Shown here: positions 13,538 to 55,358 of the stretch, one piece after another
How positions within the stretch are numbered: position 1 is the stretch's first letter
How the letters are laid out: every line of letters begins with the position of its first letter
DNA from: Escherichia phage vB_EcoM_SA35RD
Strand: one strand, 5' to 3'
Sequence record: OL960577.1
DNA: 64,000 nucleotides
Made by a program: the position numbers and the translations under genes
Notes under the pieces: generated by a model
Database searches by the model: none
Told to the model about the DNA's origin: nothing
Seen by the model: the letters and a program-made list of their open reading frames with translations, nothing else

Positions 13538-13567
13538 TTTGTTTACTCCTCTGTAGTTGATAAGTCT

Positions 13568-13597
13568 ATAGTATCACATACCAAATACGTTGTAAAC
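13568..13597 (-). promoter_or_regulatory. early (sigma70-type) promoter for the 89-aa reverse-strand gene
   Basis: Minus strand GTTTAC-18 nt-TACTAT, then leader with GAGGAG SD. Confidence 0.55.
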
Positions 13598-13603
13598 AAT
13601 CTT

Positions 13604-13611
13604 TATAAATA
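13604..13611 (+). promoter_or_regulatory. late promoter motif TATAAATA upstream of gene 24
   Basis: Exact motif 28 nt before the gene 24 ATG. Confidence 0.6.
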
Positions 13612-13638
13612 ATCTATATCACATAAGGAAAAAATGCA

Positions 13639-14922
13639 ATGAGTAAAATCCAAAAATTATTGCGTGAATCTACAACGTCTACTAGCAACTCAATTGGTCG
13701 CCCAAATCTCGTTGCTTTGACTCGCGCTACGACTAAATTAATATATTCTGACATTGTAGCAACACAAAGAACTAATCAACCTGTTGCTGCTTTTTATGGT
13801 ATCAAATATCTTAACCCAGATAACGAATTCACATTTAAAACTGGTGCTACTTATGCAGGCGAAGCTGGATATGTAGACCGAGAAAAAATTACTGAGCTCA
13901 CAGAAGAATCAAAAGTCACACTAAATAAAGGTGATTTTTTCAAATATAATAATATCGTCTATAAAGTGTTAGAAGATACACCATTTGCAGATATTCAAGA
14001 AAGTGATCTAGAATTAGCTCTTCAGATTGCAGTCGTTCATTTAAAGGTACGGTTATTTTCAGATGCAGCGGTAACAAACAAATTTGAAAGCTCTGATAGC
14101 GAAATTTCTGATGCAAGATTCCAGATTAATAAATGGCAAACTTCAGTCAAATCTCGTAAACTTAAAACTGGCCTAACGGTCGAATTAGCGCAAGATTTAG
14201 AAGCGAATGGATTTGATGCCCCTAACTTCTTAGAAGATTTGCTTGCTACTGAAATGGCAGATGAAATTAATAAAGATATTCTTCAGTCTTTAATTACTGT
14301 ATCGAAACGTTATAAAGTTACTGGAATTACTGACACCGGATTTATTGACTTGAGTTATGCATCAGCTCCAGAAGCAGGTCGTTCATTATATCGAATGGTG
14401 TGTGAAATGGTATCACACATTCAAAAAGAAACAACTTATACTGCAACGTTTTGTGTAGCCTCAGCCCGTGCAGCTGCTATTCTTGCTGCTTCTGGTTGGT
14501 TAAAACATAAGCCAGAAGATGACAAGTATCTTTCACAAAATGCTTATGGATTCTTGGCAAATGGATTACCTCTTTACTGCGATACCAACAGCCCGTTAGA
14601 TTATGTTATTGTGGGTGTTGTAGAAAATCTCGGCGAAAAAGAAATTGTAGGGTCCATCTTTTATGCTCCATACACTGAAGGAATAGATTTAGATGACCCG
14701 GAACATGTCGGTGCATTTAAAGTTGTAGTTGATCCAGAAAGCTTGCAACCGTCTATCGGATTATTGGTTAGATATGCGTTATCAGCAAATCCTTACACAG
14801 TAGCAAAAGATGAAAAAGAAGCGAGAATAATTGATGGCGGGGACATGGATAAAATGGCAGGACGTTCAGACTTGTCTGTTTTATTAGGTGTTAAACTACC
14901 AAAAATTATCATCGATGAATAA
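13639..14922 (+). CDS. 24: head vertex protein gp24
   Basis: 427 aa (T4 gp24 size); TATAAATA 28 nt upstream. Confidence 0.9.
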   Translation: MSKIQKLLRESTTSTSNSIGRPNLVALTRATTKLIYSDIVATQRTNQPVAAFYGIKYLNPDNEFTFKTGATYAGEAGYVDREKITELTEESKVTLNKGDFFKYNNIVYKVLEDTPFADIQESDLELALQIAVVHLKVRLFSDAAVTNKFESSDSEISDARFQINKWQTSVKSRKLKTGLTVELAQDLEANGFDAPNFLEDLLATEMADEINKDILQSLITVSKRYKVTGITDTGFIDLSYASAPEAGRSLYRMVCEMVSHIQKETTYTATFCVASARAAAILAASGWLKHKPEDDKYLSQNAYGFLANGLPLYCDTNSPLDYVIVGVVENLGEKEIVGSIFYAPYTEGIDLDDPEHVGAFKVVVDPESLQPSIGLLVRYALSANPYTVAKDEKEARIIDGGDMDKMAGRSDLSVLLGVKLPKIIIDE

Positions 14923-14926
14923 AACA

Positions 14927-14952
14927 AAAGGGACCTTACGGTCCCTTTTTTT
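14927..14952. terminator. bidirectional terminator between gene 24 and rnlB
   Basis: AAAGGGACC-TTAC-GGTCCCTTTTTTT: A-tract upstream and T-tract downstream, serving both convergent genes. Confidence 0.7.
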
Positions 14953-14954
14953 CG

Positions 14955-16324: not shown

Positions 16325-16515
16325 TTCTTCACCTTTTTGTTAATCAAACGTTTACGGTATACAACTTTTTCTTTTGCTTTAAACTTTGACCGAGCTGTCT
16401 CGGCTTTAGTCCATAGTAATCCAACTTCTTTAGGTTGTAAACCAATTTTTTGAGCAATTTCTACGAATGAAAATCCCGCCTCATGTAATGTATAAACTTC
16501 AACTTCAGCTCTCAT
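16321..16515 (-). CDS. hypothetical small basic protein (T4 24.3 position)
   Basis: Start moved to the ATG at 16515 (track ORF begins at a TTG at 16521); basic C-terminus. Confidence 0.5.
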   Translation of the reverse strand: MRAEVEVYTLHEAGFSFVEIAQKIGLQPKEVGLLWTKAETARSKFKAKEKVVYRKRLINKKVKK

Positions 16516-16616: not shown

Positions 16617-17747
16617 TTATGGATATGTATAGATGATACCAGTTTCCAAAGCAGTTTTATGGATGATGTATCCATTACGTGATTCTTGAACATCAACTTC
16701 CGGATAGTCTTTCATCATCTTCTGAAGAGTGTAACGATGCAGGTAGTATTTACTATCTGGATCTTCAGTTTTCCAATCTTTACCTTCTTCAGTCATTTTT
16801 TGGATTTCATCCATAACCCACCATCCGCACCAGATGTAAGCTGAAGTACGATGTGGAAGAGGATGAACATAAGGTAGTTCACCTTCTGGTTCTGGAGCAA
16901 CTTTATCAGTTACCTGAACTTGACCTTCTGCTGTAATAGTTTTTCTATCGTAATCAGTTGCAGTAATAGTTGCAGTAACTTCAATAGTTTGACTTCCAAT
17001 AGACGAGGTATCAACGGTATATACATTAGTTGACCCTTCTACAGGAGAAGAATCTTTCTTCCATGAATAAGTAATTTGTGCTTCTGGTGGTGCATCAGTG
17101 ACATTAGCAGTAAATGTGGCTGAAGCGTCTTGCTGAACATTAATAGAAGGAGGGGTCAACGTAACCTGTGGATTCATTGTCTTCTTATTAACCGTTAATG
17201 ATACTTCATTCGAAGTAACTTCCTTTGCATCATAATCTGTCGCAGTTACTTGGGCTACACATTTAATTCTTTTTACTCCATTTGTAGTTGGAGTATAATT
17301 AAATGTAGAGTTAGTTTCTCCACTAACTTGAGAACCGTCAACATACCATTGGTACGTAGCAGATGCACCTGATGGCTTCGAAGCCAAAGCAGCGGTAAAT
17401 TTAACAGCTGTTCCAATTACTCCTGCTGGAGGACTATTGGGAGTTACAGCTAAGGTAGTCGTTTGTGTCTTGTTTTGAACTGTGATGGTTGTAGAAGCTT
17501 CTGCTGTTTCAGCTTCAGCTTCTGGAACTGTATTTGTTGCAACTACTTTAATAGTCTTTTGACCGGCAGGTCCTTTTAGTACATAACTAAAAGTTGCTTC
17601 AGCTCCATCTTGCGGAACATCATCTACAGTCCAAGCATATGTAATAGTTCCACCTCCAGTTTCACCACTGGGAGTAGCAGTAAACTGCTTAGTCTCATCT
17701 ATAACTCCAGTAGGTGTTTTAGGAGTTATATCAACTGTAAAAGCCAT
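16617..17747 (-). CDS. hoc: highly immunogenic outer capsid protein Hoc
   Basis: 376 aa, Thr/Val-rich repeated Ig-like segments plus C-terminal Trp-rich domain; T4 Hoc size. Confidence 0.85.
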   Translation of the reverse strand: MAFTVDITPKTPTGVIDETKQFTATPSGETGGGTITYAWTVDDVPQDGAEATFSYVLKGPAGQKTIKVVATNTVPEAEAETAEASTTITVQNKTQTTTLAVTPNSPPAGVIGTAVKFTAALASKPSGASATYQWYVDGSQVSGETNSTFNYTPTTNGVKRIKCVAQVTATDYDAKEVTSNEVSLTVNKKTMNPQVTLTPPSINVQQDASATFTANVTDAPPEAQITYSWKKDSSPVEGSTNVYTVDTSSIGSQTIEVTATITATDYDRKTITAEGQVQVTDKVAPEPEGELPYVHPLPHRTSAYIWCGWWVMDEIQKMTEEGKDWKTEDPDSKYYLHRYTLQKMMKDYPEVDVQESRNGYIIHKTALETGIIYTYP

Positions 17748-28547: not shown

Positions 28548-28571
28548 AAAAAGGGAGACGTTGTCTCCCTT
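28548..28571 (-). terminator. terminator after ORF 28579..28872 (minus strand), convergent with gene 54
   Basis: 9-bp stem AAGGGAGAC/GTCTCCCTT; on the minus strand followed by TTTTT. Confidence 0.6.
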
Positions 28572-28578: not shown

Positions 28579-28872
28579 TTATTTACGGAATGAAAGGAAT
28601 GCTGGTGCTCGGAATGGAGTATCATCTTTAGAGTATTTAACTAATACGACCATTGGTACCTCTGTTTCTAAATGACCTGTCACTACACCGATAAAAATTT
28701 GATCAGTGTGCTCAGGGTCACGAAAGTTTTTAAGAGGTTCCATAGCAATATGGAATGCACCTGGGAATACTCGATTCAATTCGTCAATCACAGCTTCGTT
28801 AAAAACATCATCCGCTGGGATAGCATCTTCAACTACTAGTTCTTGACCATTAAAGCGAAGCATAGATTTCAT
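28579..28872 (-). CDS. hypothetical protein (T4 alt.-1/-2/-3 position)
   Basis: Start set at ATG 28872 with GAGGAAA SD, downstream of an early promoter; the track ORF start at 28944 lies upstream of that promoter and overlaps alt. Confidence 0.5.
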   Translation of the reverse strand: MKSMLRFNGQELVVEDAIPADDVFNEAVIDELNRVFPGAFHIAMEPLKNFRDPEHTDQIFIGVVTGHLETEVPMVVLVKYSKDDTPFRAPAFLSFRK

Positions 28873-28901
28873 AACGTTTTCCTCATGTTGTTGATGGGAT
28901 G

Positions 28902-28931
28902 ATAGTATCACACATCCATGTGTTTGTAAAC
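28902..28931 (-). promoter_or_regulatory. early promoter upstream of the ORF 28579..28872
   Basis: Minus strand GTTTAC-18 nt-TACTAT followed by leader caacaacatGAGGAAAacgtt-ATG. Confidence 0.55.
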
Positions 28932-35368: not shown

Positions 35369-35403
35369 AATTTCCTCAGTGGGAGCCGAAGCTCCCAGTT
35401 AAA

Positions 35404-35769
35404 TTAGATATCGAATTCGTTAAGAACTACATCAAAGATTGCTTCGAGATGTTCAGGTTTAGCTCGGTTACTCAGGATATGACGAATCCAAGTTTTAACC
35501 AGAAGTTTACGATTAACACCATTCCAGCAAGGATGAGTACCTAAATCACGTTGACGGAAATCATCATCTAATGCAATTTTGAAGTTGGAACCTTCCATCG
35601 TGATTGAAACCGTGATGCCATTTTCAAATCGCATATAAACGTAATTAGGAGTCATGCACTGTTCGATTTCACAAACTGTACCGTTTTCGTGTTTCCATAA
35701 GCAAATAACTTCAGAAGAACCAGCGATACCATTAGAAACATATTTACGTTCGAAGTTGATGTAGTTCAT
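35404..35769 (-). CDS. hypothetical protein (30.x region)
   Basis: 121 aa ORF with GGAG SD behind an early promoter. Confidence 0.55.
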   Translation of the reverse strand: MNYINFERKYVSNGIAGSSEVICLWKHENGTVCEIEQCMTPNYVYMRFENGITVSITMEGSNFKIALDDDFRQRDLGTHPCWNGVNRKLLVKTWIRHILSNRAKPEHLEAIFDVVLNEFDI

Positions 35770-35810
35770 TTTATTCTCCAGATGTTTAGGTTGTTTGTTG
35801 ATACAGGTCT

Positions 35811-35839
35811 ATAATAACATAACCTGTACCAAAGTAAAC
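35811..35839 (-). promoter_or_regulatory. early promoter upstream of ORF 35404..35769
   Basis: Minus strand GTTTAC-17 nt-TATTAT; flanking inverted repeat ACAGGT/ACCTGT encloses the -10. Confidence 0.5.
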
Positions 35840-35843: not shown

Positions 35844-36212
35844 TTATGCAACTTTAATCCAATTGTCTAAATTTAAAACACCTTTGGCTTTCATTTTTTC
35901 GATCAGGTTATCTGCTGTAATGCGTCCATTTTGATACCATGTAACATCTTCAGAGTAACCAGTTTCTTCGTCAACATATGTTTCTGAACGAATTTTACCG
36001 GTAATAATAGTTTTTAATTCGTATGTGTCACCTGTGAAAAAGTTTGCTAACACAATTTTCCAAGAGAAATCATCAGAAGGACCTTCAGGGGTCATACAAC
36101 CTACGAACTCAAATTGCTCTTTGTATAACATCCACTGGAATTCTTTAATTTCGATAGCTTTATAACCATCGTGGTCTTTACATTTGATGTATGAGTTCAG
36201 ATTGATTTTCAT
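35844..36212 (-). CDS. hypothetical protein (30.x region)
   Basis: 122 aa ORF with GGAG SD behind an early promoter. Confidence 0.55.
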   Translation of the reverse strand: MKINLNSYIKCKDHDGYKAIEIKEFQWMLYKEQFEFVGCMTPEGPSDDFSWKIVLANFFTGDTYELKTIITGKIRSETYVDEETGYSEDVTWYQNGRITADNLIEKMKAKGVLNLDNWIKVA

Positions 36213-36254
36213 TTTGTTCTCCAGGTTGTTTTATTGATTAGATGGTACAAGTCT

Positions 36255-36283
36255 ATAGTAACACATCCTACAGGAGAGTAAAC
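36255..36283 (-). promoter_or_regulatory. early promoter upstream of ORF 35844..36212
   Basis: Minus strand GTTTAC-17 nt-TACTAT. Confidence 0.55.
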
Positions 36284-36315: not shown

Positions 36316-36337
36316 AAAAGGGAGACCGAAGTCTCCC
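36316..36337 (-). terminator. terminator after the 59-aa basic ORF
   Basis: GGGAGAC-CGAA-GTCTCCC; on the minus strand followed by TTTTGTG. Confidence 0.6.
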
Positions 36338-36522: not shown

Positions 36523-36684
36523 TATAAATTCTCTTTAAATGAAAATGCAGGACTTATTGACATTGCCTGCGCAAGCCCTCAAGGGGAACATAGGTTTTGG
36601 ATATTTAACGACAGGATAACCATAAACCCGTCATCATACCACCAAGACTTACACAGCTAACCTTTTGCTGACGCATGATAGCAA

Positions 36685-36933
36685 TTATTTCAAAGTAATA
36701 ACAAAATGACGAACTGCTTTACGTGCGGCAGAAGCCAGAGGCTTAGCATATTTCAATTCATCTTTAGCTTCCAGCGCAGCGGCCAGAGTAGCCTGAGCAG
36801 GATTCAGATGTTTGAAATATCGCAGGATTTCCAGTGCTTCGGCTTCAACATCAATCGACGCGCCGTAGTTTTCGTGACCGTTATTCCATGCGTTTCGTTG
36901 CAGTTCAAGAGCGTGTTGTAATTGTTTAATCAT
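36685..36933 (-). CDS. rIII: rIII lysis-inhibition accessory protein
   Basis: 82 aa (T4 rIII size) immediately downstream of gene 31. Confidence 0.8.
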   Translation of the reverse strand: MIKQLQHALELQRNAWNNGHENYGASIDVEAEALEILRYFKHLNPAQATLAAALEAKDELKYAKPLASAARKAVRHFVITLK

Positions 36934-38327: not shown

Positions 38328-39319
38328 TATTGAACCTTATTAATATAAGTTAACAGCTCTTTAGTTTGTTCCCAACTGATGCACGCATCGGTAACGGAAA
38401 CGCCATAGGACATATTATCAGAAATTTTTTGATTTCCTTCATGTAGGAATGATTCTATCATAATTCCTTTGACCAAATCATTAGCTGCTAAATTTTTACC
38501 AATACCAATTTGATTGCTATAATGCCCATCAGCGTTTGCATGGCTACAATCGACCATTACATAATGATTCAGACCTACTGCCCTTGCTTTGTTAGAAGCT
38601 TCTTGAATATCAGAAGAATGATAGTTCGGGCCGTTGGTCCCGCCACGCAATACGATATGCGTATTCTGATTACCTTCAGCTTCAACAATGCCTACAGTAC
38701 CATCGACGTCCATACCCATATACCGATGAGGCCAGGCGGCACTATACATCGCGTCTGTAGCTACTTTAATAGAACCATTGGTTGCGTTCTTGAAGCCTAC
38801 GCACATCGGTAGACCTGAAGCAATTTCACGATGTGTCTGACTTTCAGTCGTACGGGCGCCAATAGCAACCCATGAGAAAATACCAGAAAGATACTTAATC
38901 GTGAATGGGTCTAATACTTCAGTTGCTAATGGAAGTCCCATACGTAGAAGTTTACGACACAATGTTCGTGCAACTATAAGACCGTGGTTCATATCAAAAC
39001 TTCCGTCAAGATACGGATCATTTACAAGACCTTTCCAACCTACGGTAGTTCGAGGCTTTTCAAAATAAACGCGCATCACTAACAGAACATTAGGAAGACG
39101 AGTTTGAAGTTCAGCCAGACGTTTGCCGTATTCAACAGCAGCAATAGGGTCATGAATTGAACAAGGACCTACAACAATAAGTTTGCGTGGGTCTTCACCG
39201 TTCATAATCGAATTAACTTGTTCGCGATGAGAAGCCACTTGTGATGCGTAAGCTTCCGACAAAGGAATAATCTCAGCTAGTTCTTTTGGAGAAATAAGTT
39301 TTCCGACGACAGGTAACAT
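38327..39319 (-). CDS. 3-deoxy-D-arabino-heptulosonate 7-phosphate (DAHP) synthase, class I (AroG/F/H-like)
   Basis: 330 aa; GPCSIHDP, RVYFEKPRTTVGWKGL, GARTTESQ, ILRGG, DCSHANA, ESFLHEGNQ, TDACISW align with recalled E. coli AroG including its four metal ligands; AAGGA SD; TAATG overlap with cd start. Confidence 0.9.
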   Translation of the reverse strand: MLPVVGKLISPKELAEIIPLSEAYASQVASHREQVNSIMNGEDPRKLIVVGPCSIHDPIAAVEYGKRLAELQTRLPNVLLVMRVYFEKPRTTVGWKGLVNDPYLDGSFDMNHGLIVARTLCRKLLRMGLPLATEVLDPFTIKYLSGIFSWVAIGARTTESQTHREIASGLPMCVGFKNATNGSIKVATDAMYSAAWPHRYMGMDVDGTVGIVEAEGNQNTHIVLRGGTNGPNYHSSDIQEASNKARAVGLNHYVMVDCSHANADGHYSNQIGIGKNLAANDLVKGIMIESFLHEGNQKISDNMSYGVSVTDACISWEQTKELLTYINKVQ

Positions 39320-39327
39320 AACAATCC

Positions 39328-39453
39328 TTAGGAGATATAAACAGATTCTGATTCAACAATACCTTTAACCGGATTAGACAGGCTAAGTTGGTAGTGCTCA
39401 GATTTATGACCATTCTCGATAGTAATGAGATAGCTCTCATTATAGTGTTCCAT
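39328..39453 (-). CDS. possible small ORF, 41 aa
   Basis: ATG at 39453 overlapping the 3' end of the upstream ORF; stop overlaps the DAHP synthase SD; coupling geometry only. Confidence 0.3.
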   Translation of the reverse strand: MEHYNESYLITIENGHKSEHYQLSLSNPVKGIVESESVYIS

Positions 39454-39676
39454 ATACTCGAGTTGCTTCAACAAGACCATCACTGCCTAATTTAAGATTA
39501 GTAATTTGGTCGCCATCTTTAGGATTAACAATTATGAGAAAAGAACGTGGAGATTCTTGAATAACTCGTAATGTTGCATCCTTGAAACGTTCAGACACTT
39601 TATTTATGAGTGCTTGAGCAAATTCTTTTACTTTAATCTGAAATTCGTGCACTGTAATTGGGTTTTCACTTAGCAT
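39440..39676 (-). CDS. hypothetical protein (cd.x region)
   Basis: 78 aa ORF, GAGGAAA SD, behind an early promoter. Confidence 0.5.
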   Translation of the reverse strand: MLSENPITVHEFQIKVKEFAQALINKVSERFKDATLRVIQESPRSFLIIVNPKDGDQITNLKLGSDGLVEATRVYGTL

Positions 39677-39705
39677 TCTGTTTTCCTCATTGTGTTGGTA
39701 GAGTT

Positions 39706-39735
39706 ATAGTATCACAACTCTACCATGTTGTAAAC
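39706..39735 (-). promoter_or_regulatory. early promoter upstream of ORF 39440..39676
   Basis: Minus strand GTTTAC-18 nt-TACTAT, then leader caacacaatGAGGAAAacaga-ATG. Confidence 0.55.
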
Positions 39736-41504: not shown

Positions 41505-41803
41505 TATTTTATTCCTAAGAAAATTTCAAGAATACGAATGTTATGCTCGCGCCGGTCTTTATTAATTTCAGCAACGTTTTTATTAATTGACGTACTTCTA
41601 ACGTTTGAAGAAATAAATTTAATCATATGACTTTTGAGTTGTTGCAAATCCAACCCTTTTTCTTTAGCAGCTTTACGAAGAGCTTTACCTGCTTCATCTA
41701 GTGCCTTTGCTGCATCTTTGTCATAATAGCCAAGTGACATTCCACGACAGATATCAATATACTCATCAGACCGTTTGATGTAATTCTCTAGTAATGTTTT
41801 CAT
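41504..41803 (-). CDS. hypothetical protein (pseT.x region)
   Basis: 99 aa ORF behind an early promoter. Confidence 0.5.
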
Positions 41804-41831
41804 TTAGATTTCCTCAATTATCCATAGGAGC

Positions 41832-41861
41832 ATTATACTCTGCTCCTGAGAGTTTGTAAAC
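41832..41861 (-). promoter_or_regulatory. early promoter upstream of ORF 41504..41803
   Basis: Minus strand GTTTAC-18 nt-TATAAT; -10 lies in the loop of hairpin GGAGCA/TGCTCC. Confidence 0.5.
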
Positions 41862-42719: not shown

Positions 42720-43207
42720 GTTTTAATAATCTCAATGATTTCATCTCGGGATAAACCATTAATAAGAACGGTTTTCAAACCATCACACTGGATTTTGTAC
42801 GATTCAAACAATACACACAACTCTTCTGCTGTATGATATGGACTTGAAATTCCGAGGCGGTTGAATTTGTCTGTAAGAGGGTCGCAAATAATGTAGAATT
42901 TTATACCTGCGATATGTACGTTTGGTTGACTAATATTAACGAAAACATTAGCGTCATATTTAGTCAAATTGTTTTGAAGAAATTCTACCATAGCATTAAC
43001 TGCTTCCGGCATCGCTTCACGTTTCTCTTCGGTGTAACGTGTTGAATATTCCTTTTGCTTTAACTTCTTTTTAGCATTTTTCGCTAGAGTAGTACGAAGG
43101 TCTGTAAGATAACCAACTGCACGGCCTTTCTTAAAGACCCGGATTCCATCTGTAGAATCACCAAATGCTGCCACAACCATATCGTTAGTAATCAATTGCA
43201 TATTCAT
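42707..43207 (-). CDS. alc: Alc-like protein (host transcription shutoff) by position
   Basis: Start set at ATG 43207 (GAGGAG SD), giving 166 aa; lies between spanins and rnlA as T4 alc. Assignment by synteny and length only. Confidence 0.6.
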   Translation of the reverse strand: MNMQLITNDMVVAAFGDSTDGIRVFKKGRAVGYLTDLRTTLAKNAKKKLKQKEYSTRYTEEKREAMPEAVNAMVEFLQNNLTKYDANVFVNISQPNVHIAGIKFYIICDPLTDKFNRLGISSPYHTAEELCVLFESYKIQCDGLKTVLINGLSRDEIIEIIKTCLK

Positions 43208-43236
43208 AATTTTCTCCTCGTGTTGTTGATAAAGCC

Positions 43237-43266
43237 ATAGTAACACCATCCTTGGTGTTTGTAAAC
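43237..43266 (-). promoter_or_regulatory. early promoter upstream of alc
   Basis: Minus strand GTTTAC-18 nt-TACTAT, then caacaacacGAGGAGaaaatt-ATG. Confidence 0.55.
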
Positions 43267-43268: not shown

Positions 43269-44402
<1,134 letters not shown>

Positions 44403-44419
44403 TCAGTTAGTTTTTTTAA

Positions 44420-44449
44420 ATTGTACCACAATCCTTGTGGTGTGTAAAC
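44420..44449 (-). promoter_or_regulatory. early promoter upstream of rnlA
   Basis: Minus strand GTTTAC-18 nt-TACAAT; spacer contains hairpin CCACA/TGTGG. Confidence 0.5.
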
Positions 44450-46114: not shown

Positions 46115-48370
46115 TTAAAGCTTACAAGCGGAGCAATCTTCAGCTTTAGGTGTTTCTAATTCATAGTCATCTGTACCAGAACCATCTCGAGTGTTATGAT
46201 AGTAAAGGTTCTTACCACCAAAGTACCAGAAGTAAAGCAAGTCATCAAGCATTACAGACATTGGCACTTTGCCTTTCTCAAAGACTGAAGGGTCGTAGTA
46301 TGTATTAGCAGAAGCAGATTGGCACACCCATTTTAACATGATAACAACTTGTGTCAGATAAGGCTTATTACCTTTCTTAGCGAGTTTCCACGCATAGTCA
46401 TAAAGACCCATGTTGTGTTCAATATTAGGAACTACTTGACGGAAATTACCTTCTTTAGATTCTTTAATACTTACCGGGCCACGAGGTGGTTCAATACCAT
46501 TTGTGCTATTTGAGACCTGGCTGCTTGATTCGCATGGCATGAGAGCACTGAGTGTACTGTTACGAATCCCGTGTTCTTTAAGTTCGGCTCGTAGTTCTTC
46601 CCAATCACATACATAGTTTGGGGCTGCGATTTGGTCAATCTTTTTATTGTACCAGTCGATAGGTAATTCGCCTCGAGACCATTTAGTGTCTGAATAATAC
46701 TCGCAACGTCCTTTTTCTTTGGCGAGTTTGATTGATGCTTTGATAAGGCCATATTGCAATCTCTCAAACAATTCATGAGTCAAATCGTTAGCGTCTTCAT
46801 ATGAAGCGAAGTTAGAAGCTAACCATGCAGCATAGTTCGTAACACCAACACCAAGATTACGACGCTTTTTGGCTTTTAAAGCTTCTGGAACCGGATAATC
46901 TTGATAGTCTAACAGGTTATCAAGTGCACGTACTTGTACTTCGGCAAGTTCATTAATTTTATCTTGGTCTTGCCAATCAAATTTATCTAACACGAATGCA
47001 GATAATGTGCATAAACCAATTTCAGCATCAGGACCATTCACATCATTAGTTGGAATAGCGATTTCACAACATAAGTTACTCTGACGAATTGGAGCTTTTT
47101 CACGAATAAATGGAGTGTAGTTATTCGTGTTATCAACAAACTGTGGATAAATTCGAGCAGTGCCAGAACGTTCAGTCATGAACAATTCAAAGAGTTCTAG
47201 TGCTTTGATTCTTTTCTTTCTGATTGTTGGGTCTTTTTCAGCTTTCTCATAAAGCTCACGGAATTTATCTTGATCTTCAAAGAACGAGTAGTATAGTTCG
47301 CCTGACATTTCGTGAGGGCTAAATAAAGTAATATAATCATTTTTACCAAGGCGTTCCATCATAAGGTCATTAATCTGAATTCCGTAGTCCATATGTCGAA
47401 TACGGTTTTCATCCACGCCTTTGTTATTTTTCAGAACTAATAGGTTCTCTACTTCTAAGTGCCACATCGGATAATACGCTGTAGCAGCACCACCACGAAT
47501 ACCACCTTGAGAACAAGATTTTACTGCAGTTTGGAAATGTTTCCAGAATGGAATAACACCCGTATGTCGAACTTCACCCACACCGATCTTAGAACCTTCT
47601 GCACGAAGCATACCAACGTTGATACCGATACCAGCTCGTTTAGAAATATATTCAATAATTGATGCTGAAGTTTTGTTAATAGATTTTAACGAATCACCAG
47701 CTTCAATAACTACACAACTAGAGAACTGGCGAGTTGGAGTACGAGCACCTGCCATAATTGGGGTTGGCAATGAAACTTGATGAGTAGAAACGGCATCATA
47801 AAAACGAATAATATGTTTCAAACGGTCATGAGTTTCGTCTTGGTGTAAGGCCATGCCAATAGCCATGATAGCAAACTGGGGAGTTTCATAAATCTTCCCA
47901 GTTGTTTTATCTTTAACTAGATATTTTTCTTTAAGCTGCATAGCACCAGCATAAGTCAGGTCAAAGTCTCGTTCATGTTTAATCTGTGAATCGAGATAAA
48001 TGATTTCTTCTGCTGAATATTGAGACAACAGCTCAGGGTCATATTTGCCTTCATTAACACAATAAGAAATATGGTCGATAAAAGCAGGCGGTTCAAACTG
48101 CCCATATACATCTTTACGAAGTGCAAACATTAGCCCTTTGGCGGCGACATACTGATAATCAGGTTCTTCGACAGAAATCGAGTTAGCTGCAACTTTAATA
48201 CAAATCTTCTGGATATCTTTGGTGCTCATCCCGTCAACAAGATGGGTCTTAATTTCTTCGTACAATTCATATGGGTCAATTTGTGTTCCTTCACATTGCC
48301 AGGTCAGAACTTGGATAATTTTCTGTGCATCAAAATTTTGGGATACGCCACTGCTCTTAGTTACTTGCAT
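46115..48370 (-). CDS. nrdA: ribonucleotide reductase large subunit
   Basis: 751 aa; class Ia alpha-subunit features including NLCCEIA and C-terminal CSACKL. Confidence 0.95.
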   Translation of the reverse strand: MQVTKSSGVSQNFDAQKIIQVLTWQCEGTQIDPYELYEEIKTHLVDGMSTKDIQKICIKVAANSISVEEPDYQYVAAKGLMFALRKDVYGQFEPPAFIDHISYCVNEGKYDPELLSQYSAEEIIYLDSQIKHERDFDLTYAGAMQLKEKYLVKDKTTGKIYETPQFAIMAIGMALHQDETHDRLKHIIRFYDAVSTHQVSLPTPIMAGARTPTRQFSSCVVIEAGDSLKSINKTSASIIEYISKRAGIGINVGMLRAEGSKIGVGEVRHTGVIPFWKHFQTAVKSCSQGGIRGGAATAYYPMWHLEVENLLVLKNNKGVDENRIRHMDYGIQINDLMMERLGKNDYITLFSPHEMSGELYYSFFEDQDKFRELYEKAEKDPTIRKKRIKALELFELFMTERSGTARIYPQFVDNTNNYTPFIREKAPIRQSNLCCEIAIPTNDVNGPDAEIGLCTLSAFVLDKFDWQDQDKINELAEVQVRALDNLLDYQDYPVPEALKAKKRRNLGVGVTNYAAWLASNFASYEDANDLTHELFERLQYGLIKASIKLAKEKGRCEYYSDTKWSRGELPIDWYNKKIDQIAAPNYVCDWEELRAELKEHGIRNSTLSALMPCESSSQVSNSTNGIEPPRGPVSIKESKEGNFRQVVPNIEHNMGLYDYAWKLAKKGNKPYLTQVVIMLKWVCQSASANTYYDPSVFEKGKVPMSVMLDDLLYFWYFGGKNLYYHNTRDGSGTDDYELETPKAEDCSACKL

Positions 48371-48666
48371 ATGTCCTCTATATTAAATTCGTCTTTAAAA
48401 AGTTTATTAACCACTAGAGCTATTATATCACCATGACAGGCTTTTGGTTTACATGTGCATCCCAGACGCATACCACGTAAAGGTTCTAGATGAGCTTTTG
48501 TGATTTCTCCACACTTAATTCTCTTAATAAAATCCTTTTTGAAAAGCTCAATAGCTTCTTCTCGGGAAGAGGCATCCTTGCCTACATAATTTCCCCAGAA
48601 TGTGCCACGATGAATATTAACATCAAAATCGGATTTATATTTATTCACAACGCGGCACATTTTCAT
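48361..48666 (-). CDS. hypothetical Cys-containing protein (T4 nrdA.1 position)
   Basis: 101 aa ORF overlapping nrdA start; synteny only. Confidence 0.55.
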   Translation of the reverse strand: MKMCRVVNKYKSDFDVNIHRGTFWGNYVGKDASSREEAIELFKKDFIKRIKCGEITKAHLEPLRGMRLGCTCKPKACHGDIIALVVNKLFKDEFNIEDICK

Positions 48667-50609: not shown

Positions 50610-50858
50610 TTATTTCCTCAGATTTTTCTTAACAACTTTCCAATCAGCTTTAAACGATTCAACATCAGAGTGGTGAATCCAGAATCCTGCGCTTTCACCA
50701 TCTTCGTAGAGTGGACATCCATCACATTCTTCGTTCCAACCCATTTCACGTAAAGCTTCTTCAGCTTGTTCAAGGAGTTCAGCGTCTTTACCAACTATGT
50801 TAAAGTACCATTTACCTCTAACTTCAGAATCTTTGATGCTCTGGCGTTGCAATCTCAT
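50610..50858 (-). CDS. hypothetical protein (frd.x region)
   Basis: 82 aa ORF with GGAG SD behind an early-type promoter. Confidence 0.5.
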   Translation of the reverse strand: MRLQRQSIKDSEVRGKWYFNIVGKDAELLEQAEEALREMGWNEECDGCPLYEDGESAGFWIHHSDVESFKADWKVVKKNLRK

Positions 50859-50893
50859 TTTATTCTCCGCTTCACTTTTGATTTGATAGGGCT

Positions 50894-50923
50894 ACTATAA
50901 CATAACCCTATCCGATTGTACAC
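50894..50923 (-). promoter_or_regulatory. early-type promoter upstream of ORF 50610..50858
   Basis: Minus strand GTGTAC-18 nt-TATAGT; -10 inside hairpin ATAGGG/CCCTAT. Confidence 0.45.
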
Positions 50924-51327
50924 TACTTTTTAAAAGTTTTTTGCAAAAGTTTGATGATTTCGTCGACGTTGGTTTCATCTACGATACAATGGATTTTTGT
51001 TACACCTAAAGTTATACCTTCGTTAGTAGGTTGAGGCTTTACTAAATCTACCTCAGTAAAGTACTCAATAAAGTATTTGAACTCGTCAGGATAAATCTCA
51101 AAATAAGTTTCAATTTCACCACCGGCAGAACATACAGTACCATCTTCCATAGTTACACTTACTACGTTTGACGTATCGCTATCATAATCAGGTTCCATTC
51201 CGTTTACAACAAAACTAGGCCCGTGGAGTTCAATCAATTTTAACATCTTAGCGTTATTATGTGGTGCTTCTTGAACAAAGTCGTCTTTAAATAAAGGGTT
51301 AATGATATAAGATTTTCCGATTTCCAT
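50923..51327 (-). CDS. hypothetical protein (frd.x region)
   Basis: 134 aa ORF with GAGGAAA SD behind an early promoter. Confidence 0.5.
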   Translation of the reverse strand: MEIGKSYIINPLFKDDFVQEAPHNNAKMLKLIELHGPSFVVNGMEPDYDSDTSNVVSVTMEDGTVCSAGGEIETYFEIYPDEFKYFIEYFTEVDLVKPQPTNEGITLGVTKIHCIVDETNVDEIIKLLQKTFKK

Positions 51328-51356
51328 TTTGATTTCCTCATGTTGTTGATAGGTCT

Positions 51357-51385
51357 ATATTAACACATCTAGGGAAGAAGTAAAC
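51357..51385 (-). promoter_or_regulatory. early promoter upstream of ORF 50923..51327
   Basis: Minus strand GTTTAC-17 nt-TAATAT, then caacaacatGAGGAAAtcaaa-ATG. Confidence 0.55.
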
Positions 51386-51412: not shown

Positions 51413-51434
51413 AAAAGGGAGACCGAAGTCTCCC
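51413..51434 (-). terminator. terminator after gene 32
   Basis: GGGAGAC-CGAA-GTCTCCC; on the minus strand followed by TTTTGAG, 7 nt past the gene 32 stop. Confidence 0.65.
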
Positions 51435-52459: not shown

Positions 52460-53113
52460 TTAATACTTACATGATTTGATTGTTTCTATGAACAATTTCT
52501 TAGCAACATTTCCATCGATTTGAAGTATTTTTCGATATGCCTTTAATTTGGTAGAATAATTTTGCCAGACTAAGTTATCGGTGAGTTCGTCGTGCTTATC
52601 TATAATATTCAAAAATGAGTCCAACAATAAGAAAGTTTCAAACGAAATTATATTGCTTTGTAGCAATTTAAATATGTAGCTCGACTGAACGTTGTTATTA
52701 TAATCAAATATCTCTTGAAGCGCACTAACTTCAACTTTCTTACTGAAATAGTAGATGTTACGTACGTCTTCAGCAAACGTCTCTTTAGCTTGTTTGAGAC
52801 GTCCAATATATTCCCTATAGAAAACTAATGCATCAGCGTCTGATATCTCACCAATCCATGCGTCTTGGTTAGCAACTAAGTTGCTTATGAATATCAAGGT
52901 GAGTTCCTTCAATTTATATTTCTCTGCTAGTTTTTCAAAGAAATATTTATCTCGGCGTTTTTGATACGCATTATCCGAAACACGCATGCACCAGTTATAT
53001 TTGATTACGTCATACCGACCACCAAAGTGGTTTTTGCACATCAAGTATAGTTTATATACTGATTTACCATTAATATAACGTTCTCCATCAGGAGGCATGC
53101 GTATTTTAATCAT
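52460..53113 (-). CDS. 59: helicase loader gp59
   Basis: 217 aa; near-identical to recalled T4 gp59 throughout. Confidence 0.95.
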   Translation of the reverse strand: MIKIRMPPDGERYINGKSVYKLYLMCKNHFGGRYDVIKYNWCMRVSDNAYQKRRDKYFFEKLAEKYKLKELTLIFISNLVANQDAWIGEISDADALVFYREYIGRLKQAKETFAEDVRNIYYFSKKVEVSALQEIFDYNNNVQSSYIFKLLQSNIISFETFLLLDSFLNIIDKHDELTDNLVWQNYSTKLKAYRKILQIDGNVAKKLFIETIKSCKY

Positions 53114-53789
53114 AGTTCCATCCAGGCCATTTTGAAGATTTAAGTCTATATGTAACTAAAGACGCAGAAATATTAAAAACATTTGAAACTTCTTTACACG
53201 AGGCGTATTTTATACCATCAATAATTATAGGTTTTTGTTTTTTAATAGTTCTTTCTTTAGAATGCGGCTTTGAATTTGCTATTCTAAGAGCTTCTTTGGT
53301 TGAATCAGGCATCGGCTTATTCGTTTTTCGCCCTTTTCGGACTTTACTCAAGGCCAATTTGTGAGCTTCAGATAGTTTCTTACCCTTATTAGGTGACGGT
53401 ATTTTTCTTTCTAGTCTTGTTTTAGATACTTTAGCCTTAGTCTCTTCAGATCTAGGTTTACCTAATTTAGAAAGTGAAATAGACCTTTTAGCTTCATCAC
53501 TTTGTTTTTTACCAGGACCACCTTTACCACCGGGAACTAAGTTATAAGTATCATCTCGCAAAACAAAATCTTCATTAACCAATTCTGCTTCTTTTTTATA
53601 GGCGTCCTTGTCATTATCATATTCATAAAGAATTTCGGTATAAAAATTTTTTAGTCCATATTTAGCTTTGGCCGCTAATATAGCGCGGCCTGATCCAATA
53701 TACCAATCTTTCTCTTTATGTTTTTTGTGTACGCCTATATAAATTTTACCATTTATTTTATTGGTAGTTTTATACACAACGTATTTCAT
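53106..53789 (-). CDS. GIY-YIG homing endonuclease (Seg-like, free-standing)
   Basis: 227 aa; N-terminal GIY-YIG module (KIYIGVHKK...WYIGSG, NLVPGG); Lys/Arg-rich linker; overlaps gene 59 start and gene 33 stop. Confidence 0.8.
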   Translation of the reverse strand: MKYVVYKTTNKINGKIYIGVHKKHKEKDWYIGSGRAILAAKAKYGLKNFYTEILYEYDNDKDAYKKEAELVNEDFVLRDDTYNLVPGGKGGPGKKQSDEAKRSISLSKLGKPRSEETKAKVSKTRLERKIPSPNKGKKLSEAHKLALSKVRKGRKTNKPMPDSTKEALRIANSKPHSKERTIKKQKPIIIDGIKYASCKEVSNVFNISASLVTYRLKSSKWPGWNYD

Positions 53790-54124
53790 AATAAGAAATC
53801 TAACGTATTAGTTTTTTCACCACGAGCAACTGATGGGCGAAGCATGTTTTCGTCAATTGCTTCGCTTGTAATTTTTTCAACAATTCCTGTAGGAATAAAT
53901 TTAGCAAATTGTGTTTCTGGAATAGAATTTTCTTCCAAGAAAGCAGTTGTTGCTTCTAAATAAGACATACCAAATTGTTCAACCATGGATTCGATAATGA
54001 ATCCGTTTTCTTGTCGGTCAAGTAATTTAGCGATATCATCTTTATCGTGTTTTACTGCTAATTCTTGTTCAGATAAACCGGCCTCATCAACCGGTTTAAT
54101 ATCACTTAGTGAAAACTGTGTCAT
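53786..54124 (-). CDS. 33: late transcription accessory protein gp33
   Basis: 112 aa, T4 gp33 size and position. Confidence 0.9.
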   Translation of the reverse strand: MTQFSLSDIKPVDEAGLSEQELAVKHDKDDIAKLLDRQENGFIIESMVEQFGMSYLEATTAFLEENSIPETQFAKFIPTGIVEKITSEAIDENMLRPSVARGEKTNTLDFLL

Positions 54125-54371
54125 AAAGCTCGACTACCTCTTCGTTTTCAGCTTCAAATTGATCACGAGCGTCTTTATGATAAAGAGCTAACAAACGATT
54201 AAACATTTTTCCATCGACGCCAAGCTCTTCTTTAGCACGAGTACGAATGTCTTTAATCAGTTCATTATAACCAGAAATTTTAAGTTTGTTATCGGAAGCT
54301 TCCTTGACTAGTTTAGCCAGTTCTTCACCATGCACATCTTGATTAAATTCAACTGCTTCTTTCTTAGCCAT
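54102..54371 (-). CDS. dsbA: double-stranded DNA-binding protein DsbA
   Basis: Start set at ATG 54371 (MAKKEAVEF..., GAGGT SD), giving 89 aa as T4 DsbA; track ORF starts at 54389. Confidence 0.85.
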   Translation of the reverse strand: MAKKEAVEFNQDVHGEELAKLVKEASDNKLKISGYNELIKDIRTRAKEELGVDGKMFNRLLALYHKDARDQFEAENEEVVELYDTVFTK

Positions 54372-54378
54372 GTTTACC

Positions 54379-55296
54379 TCAGAATTCATTAATTACACTT
54401 GTTAATTTAGAAAGACCGGATTTTACAAAGTATGAATAAATCTTGCCTTTAGGTTGTTGTTTATACGAGTTATAATACTCTATAATGGTTGAAGCAATAT
54501 TATCAGGGATATAATCAAAATCAATGAGAACCAAATTTTCTTGATACCGTTTATATTCTTCTGCACTTAATAATACTTCAGCTTGAGAACGGTCGTTAGC
54601 AATTGCTTCAATAATTGATGTTTTCATGCTTGGAGTTCGTTCACCTTCAACTCGAGTAAACCAGAAGTCACCACGAACTCGAACAGATGCAACACCATCC
54701 TTACGGTCACCTTTAAGAATTTTAGTCATGCAATCAATTTCAGCAGAACCGTTCTTAATTTTAACCCATTTTTTCTGTGGTGGCGACCACTGTTTAACGT
54801 TAGGATATTTGTGTAATTGTGTAAAGTCACCATCTGATGCAACAATACATACCTTATGTCCAGCTAATGACAAATATTTAGTTAATACACCGATATGGTC
54901 ATCCGCTTCATACTTGTCAATATCCATTACAACGTATGGCATGTATTTCTTAATCTCATCAACAACTTGATGGAGTGCAGTAAAATATCCTTCCCAATCC
55001 CACTTTGAAGCTTCACGATCGGTTTTACGATTTTTCTTGTAATAGTAAGCAAAATCACGTCGCCAATAACCTGAAGTAGCATTATCCATACACAATACAA
55101 ATTTTGTATAGCCTTGCTTACGGAACAACACGACGTTTTTACGAATTGAATTCAAGATTACATGGCGAACCATTGGAACAGTAATTTTATCACCGTCTTC
55201 AAAGTTGTTTAATGCGGCTGCCAACGCAATGTTACTAAAGTCGGCAAGTGCAATACCTTCTTTGTAATCTTCATCCAACATCATTTCTAAATCCAT
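54379..55296 (-). CDS. rnh: RNase H (5'-3' exonuclease, FEN family)
   Basis: 305 aa at the T4 rnh position upstream of gene 34; early promoter upstream. Confidence 0.9.
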   Translation of the reverse strand: MDLEMMLDEDYKEGIALADFSNIALAAALNNFEDGDKITVPMVRHVILNSIRKNVVLFRKQGYTKFVLCMDNATSGYWRRDFAYYYKKNRKTDREASKWDWEGYFTALHQVVDEIKKYMPYVVMDIDKYEADDHIGVLTKYLSLAGHKVCIVASDGDFTQLHKYPNVKQWSPPQKKWVKIKNGSAEIDCMTKILKGDRKDGVASVRVRGDFWFTRVEGERTPSMKTSIIEAIANDRSQAEVLLSAEEYKRYQENLVLIDFDYIPDNIASTIIEYYNSYKQQPKGKIYSYFVKSGLSKLTSVINEF

Positions 55297-55328
55297 ATGA
55301 ACCTCTTGTTCAGTTAGTCAACTTGTCT

Positions 55329-55358
55329 ATAGTAACACACTCATTTGAAAGCGTAAAC
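55329..55358 (-). promoter_or_regulatory. early promoter upstream of rnh
   Basis: Minus strand GTTTAC-18 nt-TACTAT, back-to-back with the gene 34 late promoter. Confidence 0.55.

Follow-up and report, generated by a model that had tools for sequence, protein, structure and literature searches.

In T4, the host sigma70 RNA polymerase reads an A-rich UP-like stretch, a phage-typical GTTTAC -35 element and a TAnnAT -10 element, with a 17-18 nt spacer that ends in an extended -10 (TGTG), and the early promoters built in this way win out over those of the host during the first minute of infection. A review calls them UP/-35/TGn/-10 'uber' promoters and notes additional consensus regions (Hinton 2010, PMC2988021), and 58 early promoters have been predicted in RB69 (Nolan et al. 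2006, PMC1524935). In the arrangement termed PeSL, the stop codon of the upstream gene lies in an AT-rich stretch with a sigma70-type early promoter, a stem-loop sits mostly between the -35 and -10 or over the -10, and an SD and ATG follow (Arbiol et al. 2010, PMC2839356); the T-even form of the promoter, from T4/PST, is TTTACW-N17-TAYWAT (Comeau et al. 2014, PMC4122927). A role of the PeSL stem-loop on upstream transcription was demonstrated in RB49/phi1, mini-circles were shown experimentally for the same phages, and the RB49 stem-loop acted as a terminator in a reporter (PMC2839356).

The stretch analysed here (the window; 64,000 nucleotides of Escherichia phage vB_EcoM_SA35RD) is 96-98% identical to Mosigvirus genomes and is, judged by its sequence, a Mosigvirus, an RB69-like T-even phage. 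The pattern GTTTAC-N16-19-TANNAT has 12 matches in the whole window, all on the minus strand; 100 dinucleotide-preserving shuffles gave 1.28 on average and never more than 4, which makes the enrichment 9-fold. The first-pass annotation had proposed a minus-strand GTTTAC/TAnnAT module at ten or more sites, and this holds: all 11 sites that it listed exist, and ten match the pattern exactly. The eleventh, 50894-50923, is off-consensus (GTGTAC ... TATAGT, one mismatch per hexamer) but is nevertheless the ortholog of a predicted RB69 early promoter. Two further sites, 16413-16442 and 34724-34754, bring the total to 13. The proposed leader with an SD and then an ATG was also confirmed, since GAGG/GGAG and ATG lie 24-42 nt downstream at every site except 16413-16442 (12/13). 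At 8/13 sites the gap between the upstream stop codon and the -35 is only -1 to +4 nt. The features are as follows, with the number used below for each site in brackets.

13535-13597, minus strand (13568): predicted early promoter and leader of an 89-aa ORF188c-like gene, divergent from gene 24; -35 GTTTAC 13592-13597, -10 TACTAT 13568-13573, SD GAGGAG, ATG 13535-13537; ortholog RB69 Pe:109605.
16413-16442, minus strand (16413): promoter-like site within ORF 24.3; ortholog RB69 Pe:112451, 100% over 48 nt; no SD/ATG found nearby (24.2 ATG 88 nt off), and no hairpin beyond shuffles on folding.
28870-28931, minus strand (28902): predicted early promoter and leader of alt.-3; -35 GTTTAC 28926-28931, its G common to the TAG stop of alt; -10 TACTAT 28902-28907; leader ...ATCAACAACATGAGGAAA, then ATG 28870-28872; RB69 Pe:125323.
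34697-34754, minus strand (34724): predicted early promoter and leader of 30.5, after the TAG stop of the 204-aa 30.6A ORF; 19-nt spacer, -10 TATAAT.
35767-35839, minus strand (35811): predicted early promoter and leader of 30.7; SD GGAGAATAAAA; hairpin around the -10 with arms GGTACAGGT (35822-35830) and ACCTGTATC (35800-35808), -15.6 kcal/mol, z -3.8, the stem being conserved in T4 and phage 212 and throughout the Mosigviruses; RB69 Pe:131670.
36210-36283, minus strand (36255): predicted early promoter and leader of 30.8; SD GGAGAACAAAA; RB69 Pe:132117.
36320-36337, minus strand: predicted intrinsic terminator GGGAGAC-TTCG-GTCTCCC + TTTT, between 30.9 and the 30.8 promoter.
39674-39735, minus strand (39706): predicted early promoter and leader of cd.2; 10-bp hairpin 39696-39725, -17.2 kcal/mol, z -4.6, with a 10-nt loop GTGATACTAT equal to the extended -10 plus -10; RB69 Pe:134561.
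41801-41861, minus strand (41832): predicted early promoter and leader of ORF231c; -35 overlapped by the TAG stop of pseT.1; hairpin AGGAGC/GCTCCT around AGAGTATAAT, 41821-41851, -12.2 kcal/mol; RB69 Pe:136687.
43205-43266, minus strand (43237): predicted early promoter and leader of alc; spacer-internal hairpin ACACCA-AGGA-TGGTGT, 43242-43259, -8.0 kcal/mol, z -1.35; RB69 Pe:138093.
44391-44449, minus strand (44420): predicted early promoter and leader of rnlA; -35 overlapped by the TAG stop of denA; spacer-internal hairpin CCACAA-GGA-TTGTGG, 44425-44441; RB69 Pe:139277.
50856-50923, minus strand (50894): predicted early promoter and leader of frd.1 (GTGTAC / TATAGT); SD GGAGAATAAAA; 9-bp hairpin around the -10, 50885-50912, -16.2 kcal/mol, z -4.6; member of the RB69 promoter subfamily TAGGNCT...AGNCCTA; RB69 Pe:145300.
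51325-51385, minus strand (51357): predicted early promoter and leader of frd.2; leader TATCAACAACATGAGGAAATCAAAATG; RB69 Pe:146013.
51417-51434, minus strand: predicted intrinsic terminator GGGAGAC-TTCG-GTCTCCC + TTTT, after gene 32.
55294-55358, minus strand (55329): predicted early promoter and leader of rnh, divergent from gene 34; no hairpin beyond shuffles on folding; RB69 Pe:149309.

Twelve of the 13 sites correspond one-to-one with predicted RB69 early promoters (PMC1524935, Additional file 3), most of them 94-100% identical to their counterparts. The differences from RB69 are that 34724 sits in a 30.6A segment missing from that phage, that the window yielded no match for the weak RB69 site Pe:136969, and that RB69 carries ORF245c in the leader of its 51357 ortholog. 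The T4 promoters share the GTTTAC -35, the 17-18 nt spacer, the GT-rich extended -10, the TAnnAT -10 and an A-rich -40 to -44, and in both phages the promoters precede early genes on the early strand. T4 promoters occupy the orthologous junctions 30.8/30.7, 30.9/30.8, cd.3/cd.2 ('Pe133295'), rnlA/alc, frd.2/frd.1, 32/frd.3, alt.-2/alt.-3 and 34/rnh. Nothing essential distinguishes the two sets, although individual spacers and leaders differ and some junctions hold a promoter in one phage only (41832 and 34724 are missing in T4). Sites are also conserved at orthologous positions in phage 212 and phiR1-RT. The repeated module is thus the already catalogued RB69-like early promoter, leader and ribosome-binding site, and is already named 'PeSL'. 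We consider it very probable, on sequence grounds, that the sites serve an RB69-like T-even phage as immediate-early promoters and that each is coupled to a short leader, a ribosome-binding site (GAGG/GGAG) and an early-gene start codon, and this assessment includes the accounts of gene shuffling and of hairpins given below.

Alignment of the sites yields the consensus aaAAAaTaGTTTACAa...tTGTGtTAcTATagaCcTATCAAcAa..GAGGAaaa..ATG, in which information extends outside both hexamers. The initial description of one repeated cassette was overstated. Mean pairwise identity is 47% (maximum 71%) over 48 nt, compared with 26% for random 48-mers, indicating that the sites share a consensus and are not near-identical copies of one another. 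The longest exact word common to two window sites is 18 nt (ATCAACAACATGAGGAAA), and the caacaaca(t/c)GAGGA core ascribed to four sites is present at 28902, 43237 and 51357 but only approximate at 39706. What the sites share is the early-promoter consensus of T4 together with a leader and SD; they are alike because all are selected for the 'uber-promoter' consensus. Some are additionally members of subfamilies spread by copying or gene conversion. The T4 alt.-3 and alc promoters, 13 kb apart, share a block identical at 54 of 55 nt and bounded by the -35 and SD, and RB69 has subfamilies of promoters whose spacers are identical.

The PeSL identity suggested earlier is borne out by the published parts (PMC2839356, PMC4122927): the order of parts is that of the PeSLs of RB49/phi1, T4/PST and KVP40/nt-1, the promoters fit the T4/PST form, and some indels of adjacent ORFs have crossovers inside the element. 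In contrast with those PeSLs, a stem-loop of any kind is found at only 8/13 window sites, and the stems are AT/GC-mixed rather than polyG/polyC as in RB49. The units also recall lambdoid 'morons', in which an ORF stands between a promoter and a terminator of its own, where a small accessory ORF has its own promoter (41832 with ORF231c/230c, or 30.6A with 34724). They differ in lying directly one after another, with stop codons that overlap the -35 of the following unit, in using the phage's own early promoter type, and in having no compositional sign of recent foreign origin, as argued for RB69 (PMC1524935).

A stronger form of the PeSL model, which we regard as unlikely, would make the sites dedicated mobile regulatory elements. 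Recombination between cassettes would then be the chief cause of the gain, loss and exchange of small ORFs in these regions, ORFs would be excised with their cassettes as mini-circles of the kind found in RB49/phi1 (PMC2839356), and every site would be an insertion boundary. Indels were surveyed across 13-56 kb in nine Mosigvirus genomes, which are close relatives, and in T4, with loci counted rather than phylogenetically resolved events. Among the 21 indel loci in the nine genomes, 16 touch no promoter site and five do. Indel endpoints fall at 6/12 promoter-bearing junctions and at 17/56 others (odds ratio 2.3, one-sided p=0.17), and synteny breaks relative to T4 fall at 4/12 and 16/56, respectively (p=0.50); neither excess is significant. 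In this sample, therefore, gains and losses of genes are no commoner at the sites than at other gene boundaries, although with loci counted in nine close relatives and T4 a modest true enrichment (odds ratio ~2) may exist. Six of the 12 intergenic sites (28902, 39706, 41832, 43237, 44420 and 55329) have the same flanking genes in 9/9 relatives. Most indels are homing-endonuclease/intron insertions or small-ORF indels at promoter-less junctions, and boundaries at the latter likewise lie at SD/start codons. In NRG-P0074 and LF82-2, a homing endonuclease and a different ORF stand downstream of the 13568 promoter, with the breakpoint in the leader (13546).

The earlier designation of the sites as probable insertion boundaries keeps some force from three or four events that cross over inside cassettes, and these also favour the stronger model. 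First, G2285 lacks 30.8 through recombination of the 36255 cassette, the upstream partner, with the 35811 cassette; its sequence switches from P30.8 to P30.7 inside AAACA-CTGGAGAAYAAAATGAA, and the junction is contiguous in PTE-Eco05, AV109, AV114 and AV115 as well (5 records). Second, RB69 ORF245c (T4 frd.3) is inserted exactly in the frd.2 leader, between ATCAACAA..GAGGAAA repeats. Third, LF82-2 and some 20 further records have an additional frd.2 paralogue that is flanked by two diverged promoter+hairpin units, one of them the ortholog of the 50894 site. A possible fourth event is the replacement of a block comprising 30.6A and the 34724 promoter (34700-35361) by the promoter-less gene 30.6 in SF, RB69 and T4. 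This promoter thus travels with its ORF, and the 41832 promoter, ORF231c and ORF230c are missing from T4 as a block; the duplicated T4 block and the RB69 subfamilies fit the stronger model too. However, exact homology among window sites does not exceed 18 nt, and the in-cassette crossovers lie mostly within the leader/SD part rather than the promoter or stem-loop. From time to time, an adjacent small ORF is probably deleted, inserted or replaced by crossing over within these short common leader/SD stretches. Since crossovers are about as frequent at other gene starts, the cassettes would not be a privileged shuffling device.

Strong hairpins enclose the -10 at 35811, 39706, 41832 and 50894 (-12 to -17 kcal/mol, z -2.5 to -4.6), and weaker ones lie inside the spacer at 43237 and 44420. 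The first-pass annotation had placed a hairpin around the -10 'often', which holds for a minority of the sites: folding against shuffled sequence reveals no nested hairpin at the other 7/13. UUCG terminators lie upstream of two sites; 36320-36337 and 51417-51434 are identical in sequence, have counterparts annotated as terminator in related records (WFbE185, G2285, NRG-P0074), and are canonical upstream PeSL stem-loops. Neither nested nor upstream hairpins were found at 13568, 16413, 28902, 34724 and 55329 (5/13). The nested hairpins have no U-tract and hence are not classical intrinsic terminators. At the alc-promoter junction of phiR1-RT, a 13-bp hairpin encloses the -10 (-22.9 kcal/mol). 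Across RB69, 19/58 published promoters fold at <= -12 kcal/mol, compared with 3.4% of chimeras (the spacer of one RB69 promoter followed by the -10 and downstream portion of a second) and 4.0% of random 48-mers; the native mean was reached by 0/5000 permutations, with the caveat that the 58 promoters fall into subfamilies and so are not independent.

Nested hairpins in RB69 accompany tight stop/-35 packing (17/30 vs 6/27, Fisher p=0.014); where the gap is 22-75 nt, strong hairpins lie upstream of the promoter instead. This preference suggests that the hairpins act on the upstream transcript. An inverted repeat would often be nested in the spacer or around the -10 where the stop of the upstream gene lies right at the -35, whereas 20-75 nt of intergenic room would allow a GC-rich UUCG hairpin with a U-tract upstream instead. 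With a -10-enclosing repeat, the promoter's own transcript would begin within the 3' arm or beyond it, and with a spacer-internal repeat it would begin past the whole repeat; the nested hairpin would consequently form only in RNA reading through from upstream. Such a hairpin may attenuate or insulate upstream transcription, or stabilise the upstream 3' end; homology and the literature suggest both this function and the promoter activity itself.

A different role for the nested repeats, which we consider improbable, would be to act directly at the promoter, either as a DNA structure or as the target of a structure-specific factor, for example in rapid early-promoter shut-off, rather than as read-through RNA elements. 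In favour of this, their geometry is very regular: the loop is exactly the 10 nt of the extended -10 plus -10 in 12/21 RB69 cases, the 3' arm begins at -6, and stems vary in sequence among promoters while keeping their position. However, loops of 10-16 nt disfavour cruciform extrusion. Stem mismatches in RB69 (G-T 6 vs A-C 5) are as expected if both strands matter and do not tell RNA from DNA as the selected form. Ortholog changes, in contrast, proceed mostly via G-U on the sense strand, as at 41832, where a pair passes from A-U to G-U to G-C (GGGAGC/GCTCCC) in NRG-P0074 and phage 212, and at cd.2, where 94% of stem cells are still paired. Covariation among orthologs amounts to 1-2 fully compensatory pairs, the rest being G-U, with no excess over column shuffles. 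The mechanism of early-promoter shut-off has been described as not completely understood (PMC3014915), which speaks for such a role, but the RB49 stem-loop terminates in a reporter (PMC2839356) and the hairpins favour junctions where the upstream gene ends at the -35.

Finally, although a loose TTGACA/TATAAT scan of 20 kb finds 75 sites vs 63 +/- 8 in shuffles, generic sigma70-like matches arising by chance in AT-rich DNA have a negligible likelihood of explaining the sites, and this reading is refuted by the enrichment of the specific pattern on one strand, its placement 24-42 nt before start codons, and the 12/13 RB69 orthologs and other conserved positions.

The pattern GTTTAC-N16-19-TANNAT is matched 12 times in the window, on the minus strand only, compared with a mean of 1.28 and a maximum of 4 in dinucleotide-preserving shuffles, and this comparison rules out chance as the source of the sites. 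This T-even-specific pattern was adopted because a generic scan for sigma70 promoters plus terminators did not discriminate (75 sites versus 63 expected) and was dropped. The first-pass annotation had proposed 11 promoter sites, ten of which are exact matches to the pattern; the eleventh, 50894, carries GTGTAC and a -10 of TATAGT, against TAnnAT elsewhere. Two matches were absent from that annotation, one at 34724-34754 and one at 16413-16442. The resulting set, in which each site is named by the first plus-strand coordinate of its -10 element, is as follows.

13568-13597, minus strand, putative early promoter ahead of an 89-aa ORF188c-like gene
16413-16442, minus strand, putative early promoter within ORF 24.3
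28902-28931, minus strand, putative early promoter ahead of alt.-3
34724-34754, minus strand, putative early promoter ahead of 30.5
35811-35839, minus strand, putative early promoter ahead of 30.7
36255-36283, minus strand, putative early promoter ahead of 30.8
39706-39735, minus strand, putative early promoter ahead of cd.2
41832-41861, minus strand, putative early promoter ahead of ORF231c
43237-43266, minus strand, putative early promoter ahead of alc
44420-44449, minus strand, putative early promoter ahead of rnlA
50894-50923, minus strand, putative early promoter ahead of frd.1
51357-51385, minus strand, putative early promoter ahead of frd.2
55329-55358, minus strand, putative early promoter ahead of rnh

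Similarity confined to generic sigma70 elements was looked for as counter-evidence to a shared module, and an extended consensus outside both hexamers was found instead. Aligned, the sites yield aaAAAaTa-GTTTAC-Aa...tTGTGt-TAcTAT-agaCcTATCAAcAa..GAGGAaaa..ATG, with measurable information in the UP-like A-rich region directly 5' of the -35 (around -40 to -44; 0.4-1.0 bits per position) and in the GT-rich extended -10 (TGTG; 0.8-1.4 bits per position). The -35 hexamer, with G at -36 and T at -33, is exact at all sites except 50894, and the spacer measures 19 nt at 34724 and 17-18 nt at the other 12. A GAGG or GGAG Shine-Dalgarno (SD) sequence and an ATG follow after 24-42 nt at 12 of the 13 sites. 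The earlier view of one repeated module thus holds for the shared consensus, but not in the sense of near-identical repeats. Pairwise identity over 48 nt averages 47% (maximum 71%), compared with 26% for random 48-mers, and the longest exact word common to any two sites is 18 nt. The likeness among leaders is explained in part by RegB-like sequence, because 30.7, 30.8 and frd.1 have GGAGAA(T/C)AAAA around their SD (35772-35782, 36215-36225 and 50861-50871, minus strand) and the consensus quoted for strong cleavage sites of the RegB endoribonuclease is GGAGRAYARAA (PMC3014915).

These features identify the sites, on sequence grounds, as putative T4-type early promoters. The window extends from gene 23 to gene 34 and is 96-98% identical across tens of kilobases to many genomes of Mosigvirus, the RB69-like T-even phages of the Straboviridae. 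Its minus strand carries the early genes (alt, 30.x, cd.x, pseT.x, nrd, td, frd and 32 among them), and every site is oriented with early transcription. T4 early promoters have been described as UP/-35/TGn/-10 'uber' promoters with extra consensus regions (PMC2988021), the form reported for T4/PST is TTTACW-N17-TAYWAT (PMC4122927), and RB69 early promoters were predicted by their characteristic GTTTAC at -36 to -31 (PMC1524935). Of the 13 sites, 12 have a positional ortholog in the published RB69 list of 58 (Pe:109605, 112451, 125323, 131670, 132117, 134561, 136687, 138093, 139277, 145300, 146013 and 149309); 34724 has no counterpart there because the 30.6A segment that bears it is missing from RB69. 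T4, phage 212 and phiR1-RT likewise carry the same promoter type at several of the same junctions.

In the published promoter-early stem-loop (PeSL), the upstream gene has its stop codon in AT-rich DNA, and a sigma70-type early promoter, a stem-loop, an SD sequence and an ATG make up the rest of the element (PMC2839356). At 8 of the 13 sites the gap between stop codon and -35 is only -1 to +4 nt, and at two it is 55-59 nt; the remaining three comprise two divergent junctions and one intragenic site. The upstream TAG overlaps the GTTTAC element by its G at five junctions (28931, 34754, 41861, 44449 and 50923), such that the A-rich UP-like stretch there is coding sequence of the upstream gene. 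Strong hairpins enclosing the -10 (-12 to -17 kcal/mol, z -2.5 to -4.6) are present at 35811, 39706, 41832 and 50894, and weaker, spacer-internal hairpins at 43237 and 44420. The same upstream terminator, GGGAGAC-UUCG-GUCUCCC followed by U4, precedes two sites, and five have neither a nested hairpin (spacer-internal or -10-enclosing) nor this UUCG terminator. The claim that a hairpin often surrounds the -10 therefore stands for four sites, but nine lack such a structure, two of these having the weaker spacer hairpins. The PeSL label itself is apt: stop/-35 packing, promoter and SD with ATG match the published anatomy, and hairpins are present at part of the sites. The identification is correct, and published work on this phage group had already made it. 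For annotation, the window gains 13 predicted early promoters, 2 predicted terminators and 6 predicted hairpins nested in promoters.

The 18-nt UUCG-tetraloop hairpin GGGAGACTTCGGTCTCCC occurs in four copies and one variant, on both strands, and is a predicted repeated terminator module. The copies lie after 30.9, after 32 and after gene 23, with the variant after alt.-3, and a T-run follows the minus-strand copies. An Rfam scan of 13-56 kb returned no family at gathering score.

13240-13257, plus strand, copy of the UUCG hairpin, after gene 23
28553-28569, minus strand, variant of the UUCG hairpin, after alt.-3
36320-36337, minus strand, copy of the UUCG hairpin, after 30.9, predicted upstream terminator
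51417-51434, minus strand, copy of the UUCG hairpin, after 32, predicted upstream terminator
60417-60434, plus strand, copy of the UUCG hairpin

The -10-enclosing hairpin was considered as an undescribed feature, and this was dropped because the commonest PeSL subclasses are listed as having the stem-loop over the -10 or in the interval from -35 to -10, with upstream placement in some cases (PMC2839356). Literature searches on dyad symmetry in T4 early promoters turned up no description beyond the PeSL and promoter papers.

Whether nested hairpins exceed the complementarity built into the consensus was assessed with the complete published RB69 list (58 promoters), using chimeras in which the spacer came from one promoter and the -10 with its downstream sequence from a different one. 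Nineteen of the 58 native promoters fold at <= -12 kcal/mol, compared with 3.4% of chimeras and 4.0% of random genomic 48-mers, and none of 5000 permutations attained the native mean. Genome-wide, then, the hairpin arms match far better within RB69 promoters than in chimeras. The loop consists of exactly the 10 nt of the extended -10 and -10 in 12 of 21 clear cases, and roughly one in three RB69-type early promoters has this form of hairpin, which goes with junctions whose upstream stop abuts the -35. The stop codon lies <=6 nt from the -35 in 30 of 57 RB69 early promoters, and nested hairpins accompany this tight packing (17/30 versus 6/27, p=0.014). Where 22-75 nt separate the stop codon from the -35, strong upstream hairpins are present instead, although the mutual exclusivity of upstream and nested hairpins is a marginal trend (2/12 versus 21/45, p=0.10).

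The packing data agree with the published proposal of a stem-loop that works for the upstream transcript. We infer that the nested hairpins, which have no U-tracts, may do so here. Termination or attenuation of upstream transcription by the stem-loop, and mini-circle formation between flanking elements, have been demonstrated experimentally in RB49/phi1 only (PMC2839356). Ortholog comparisons of the hairpins give mostly one-sided G-U changes and 1-2 compensatory pairs, among orthologs so little diverged that shuffle controls are uninformative. One stem pair at 41832 passes from A-U through G-U to G-C, and one compensatory pair occurs at the frd.1 hairpin of phage 212. The count meant to tell RNA-level from DNA-level selection gave six G-T and five A-C mismatches. 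In phiR1-RT (L014, 15907-15936) the alc promoter has a 13-bp perfect -10-enclosing hairpin of -22.9 kcal/mol, whereas the Mosigvirus ortholog has only a 6-bp spacer hairpin, so hairpin type turns over at a fixed junction.

It seems very improbable to us that the regular hairpin is more than a leftover terminator and acts on the promoter itself, for instance by making firing dependent on upstream read-through or in the rapid shut-off of T-even early promoters, a process that the literature leaves unexplained. If it did, this would constitute a distinct regulatory layer, outside what the PeSL papers tested.

The sites had also been proposed to mark insertion boundaries. Because a search of viral contigs for relatives of the cd.2 locus, made with its protein, gave only two near-identical loci, regions of annotated genomes were compared whole, and nine Mosigvirus genomes (NRG-P0074, WFbE185, JS09, SF, RB69, G2285, LF82-2, O157 typing phage 13 and JK36) were aligned to the window. 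Of 21 indel loci within 13-56 kb, five touch promoter sites, and three of these are textbook cassette recombination with crossovers inside the cassettes. G2285 lacks 30.8, and its junction tracks the 30.8 promoter to ...TAAAACAA and then switches into the 30.7 leader CTGGAGAATAAAATGAAC; the same contiguous junction is present in PTE-Eco05, AV109, AV114 and AV115. RB69 ORF245c (T4 frd.3) is bordered on either side by a ATCAACAA..GAGGAAA leader repeat, the 51357 ortholog having one of the two as its leader. An extra frd.2 paralogue lies between two promoter-hairpin units in LF82-2 and about 20 other records. The window has 30.6A and promoter 34724 where SF, RB69 and T4 have 30.6, and the ORF downstream of 13568 is exchanged for a homing endonuclease block in some relatives.

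In T4, the alt.-3 and alc promoters, 13 kb apart, share a block identical at 54 of 55 nt, with the -35 and the SD as its exact limits (L002, 19040-19094 and 32283-32337), whereas the corresponding window pair, 28902 and 43237, is only about 69% identical. The T4 block suggests recent cassette copying or gene conversion. G2285 also has a second, promoter-independent deletion (34625-35652 of the window), which removes 30.6A with promoter 34724 and leaves a fusion of an N-terminal piece of 30.7 with a C-terminal piece of 30.5.

The other 16 loci touch no promoter site. They include homing endonuclease or intron indels (18469, 40387, 45388, 46065, 49233 and 53114-53786), hoc-internal variation, a DAHP-synthase block, nrdA.1, frd.1b and others. 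Indel endpoints fall at 6 of 12 promoter-bearing junctions versus 17 of 56 others (odds ratio 2.3, one-sided p=0.17), and gene-level synteny with T4 is broken at 4 of 12 versus 16 of 56 (p=0.50). The boundary proposal is thus supported in part, by the three events with in-cassette crossovers, but the excess over other junctions is not significant; a modest enrichment may escape a sample such as this. Promoter-less indels likewise have boundaries at SD sequences or start codons, and the crossovers seen in cassettes fall in the leader/SD part. Together, these results favour any translation-initiation region as a possible module boundary over promoters as privileged boundaries. Promoter cassettes do recombine, yet in this region of the RB69 group gene gain and loss occur at SD/start-codon boundaries generally, with homing endonucleases dominating; in quantitative terms this advises a little caution about the PeSL hypothesis. 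Should a phylogeny-aware count across the genus also show no enrichment, the recombination-prone T-even boundary would be short translation-initiation homology and not the promoter/stem-loop.

Several individual differences were recorded in the same alignments. Between 30.9 and rIII, at 36681-36685, the window is ~100-135 bp shorter than all nine compared Mosigviruses, whose additional stretch some records annotate as a 37-aa ORF. A 227-aa homing-endonuclease-like ORF between 59 and 33 (53106-53789) is missing in eight of nine relatives and present in WFbE185. The 101-aa ORF after nrdA (48361-48666) is also kept only in WFbE185; its place is taken by 92-98 bp in seven relatives and by a homing endonuclease in NRG-P0074. 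RB69 and JK36 lack an entire block (38331-39424) made up of the DAHP-synthase gene plus a small ORF, with a 19-nt alignment overlap and no promoter site at the junction. Finally, NRG-P0074, RB69 and O157 typing phage 13 have other sequence in place of the hoc interior (16892-17483), whereas in WFbE185 this part is duplicated, giving an extra domain.
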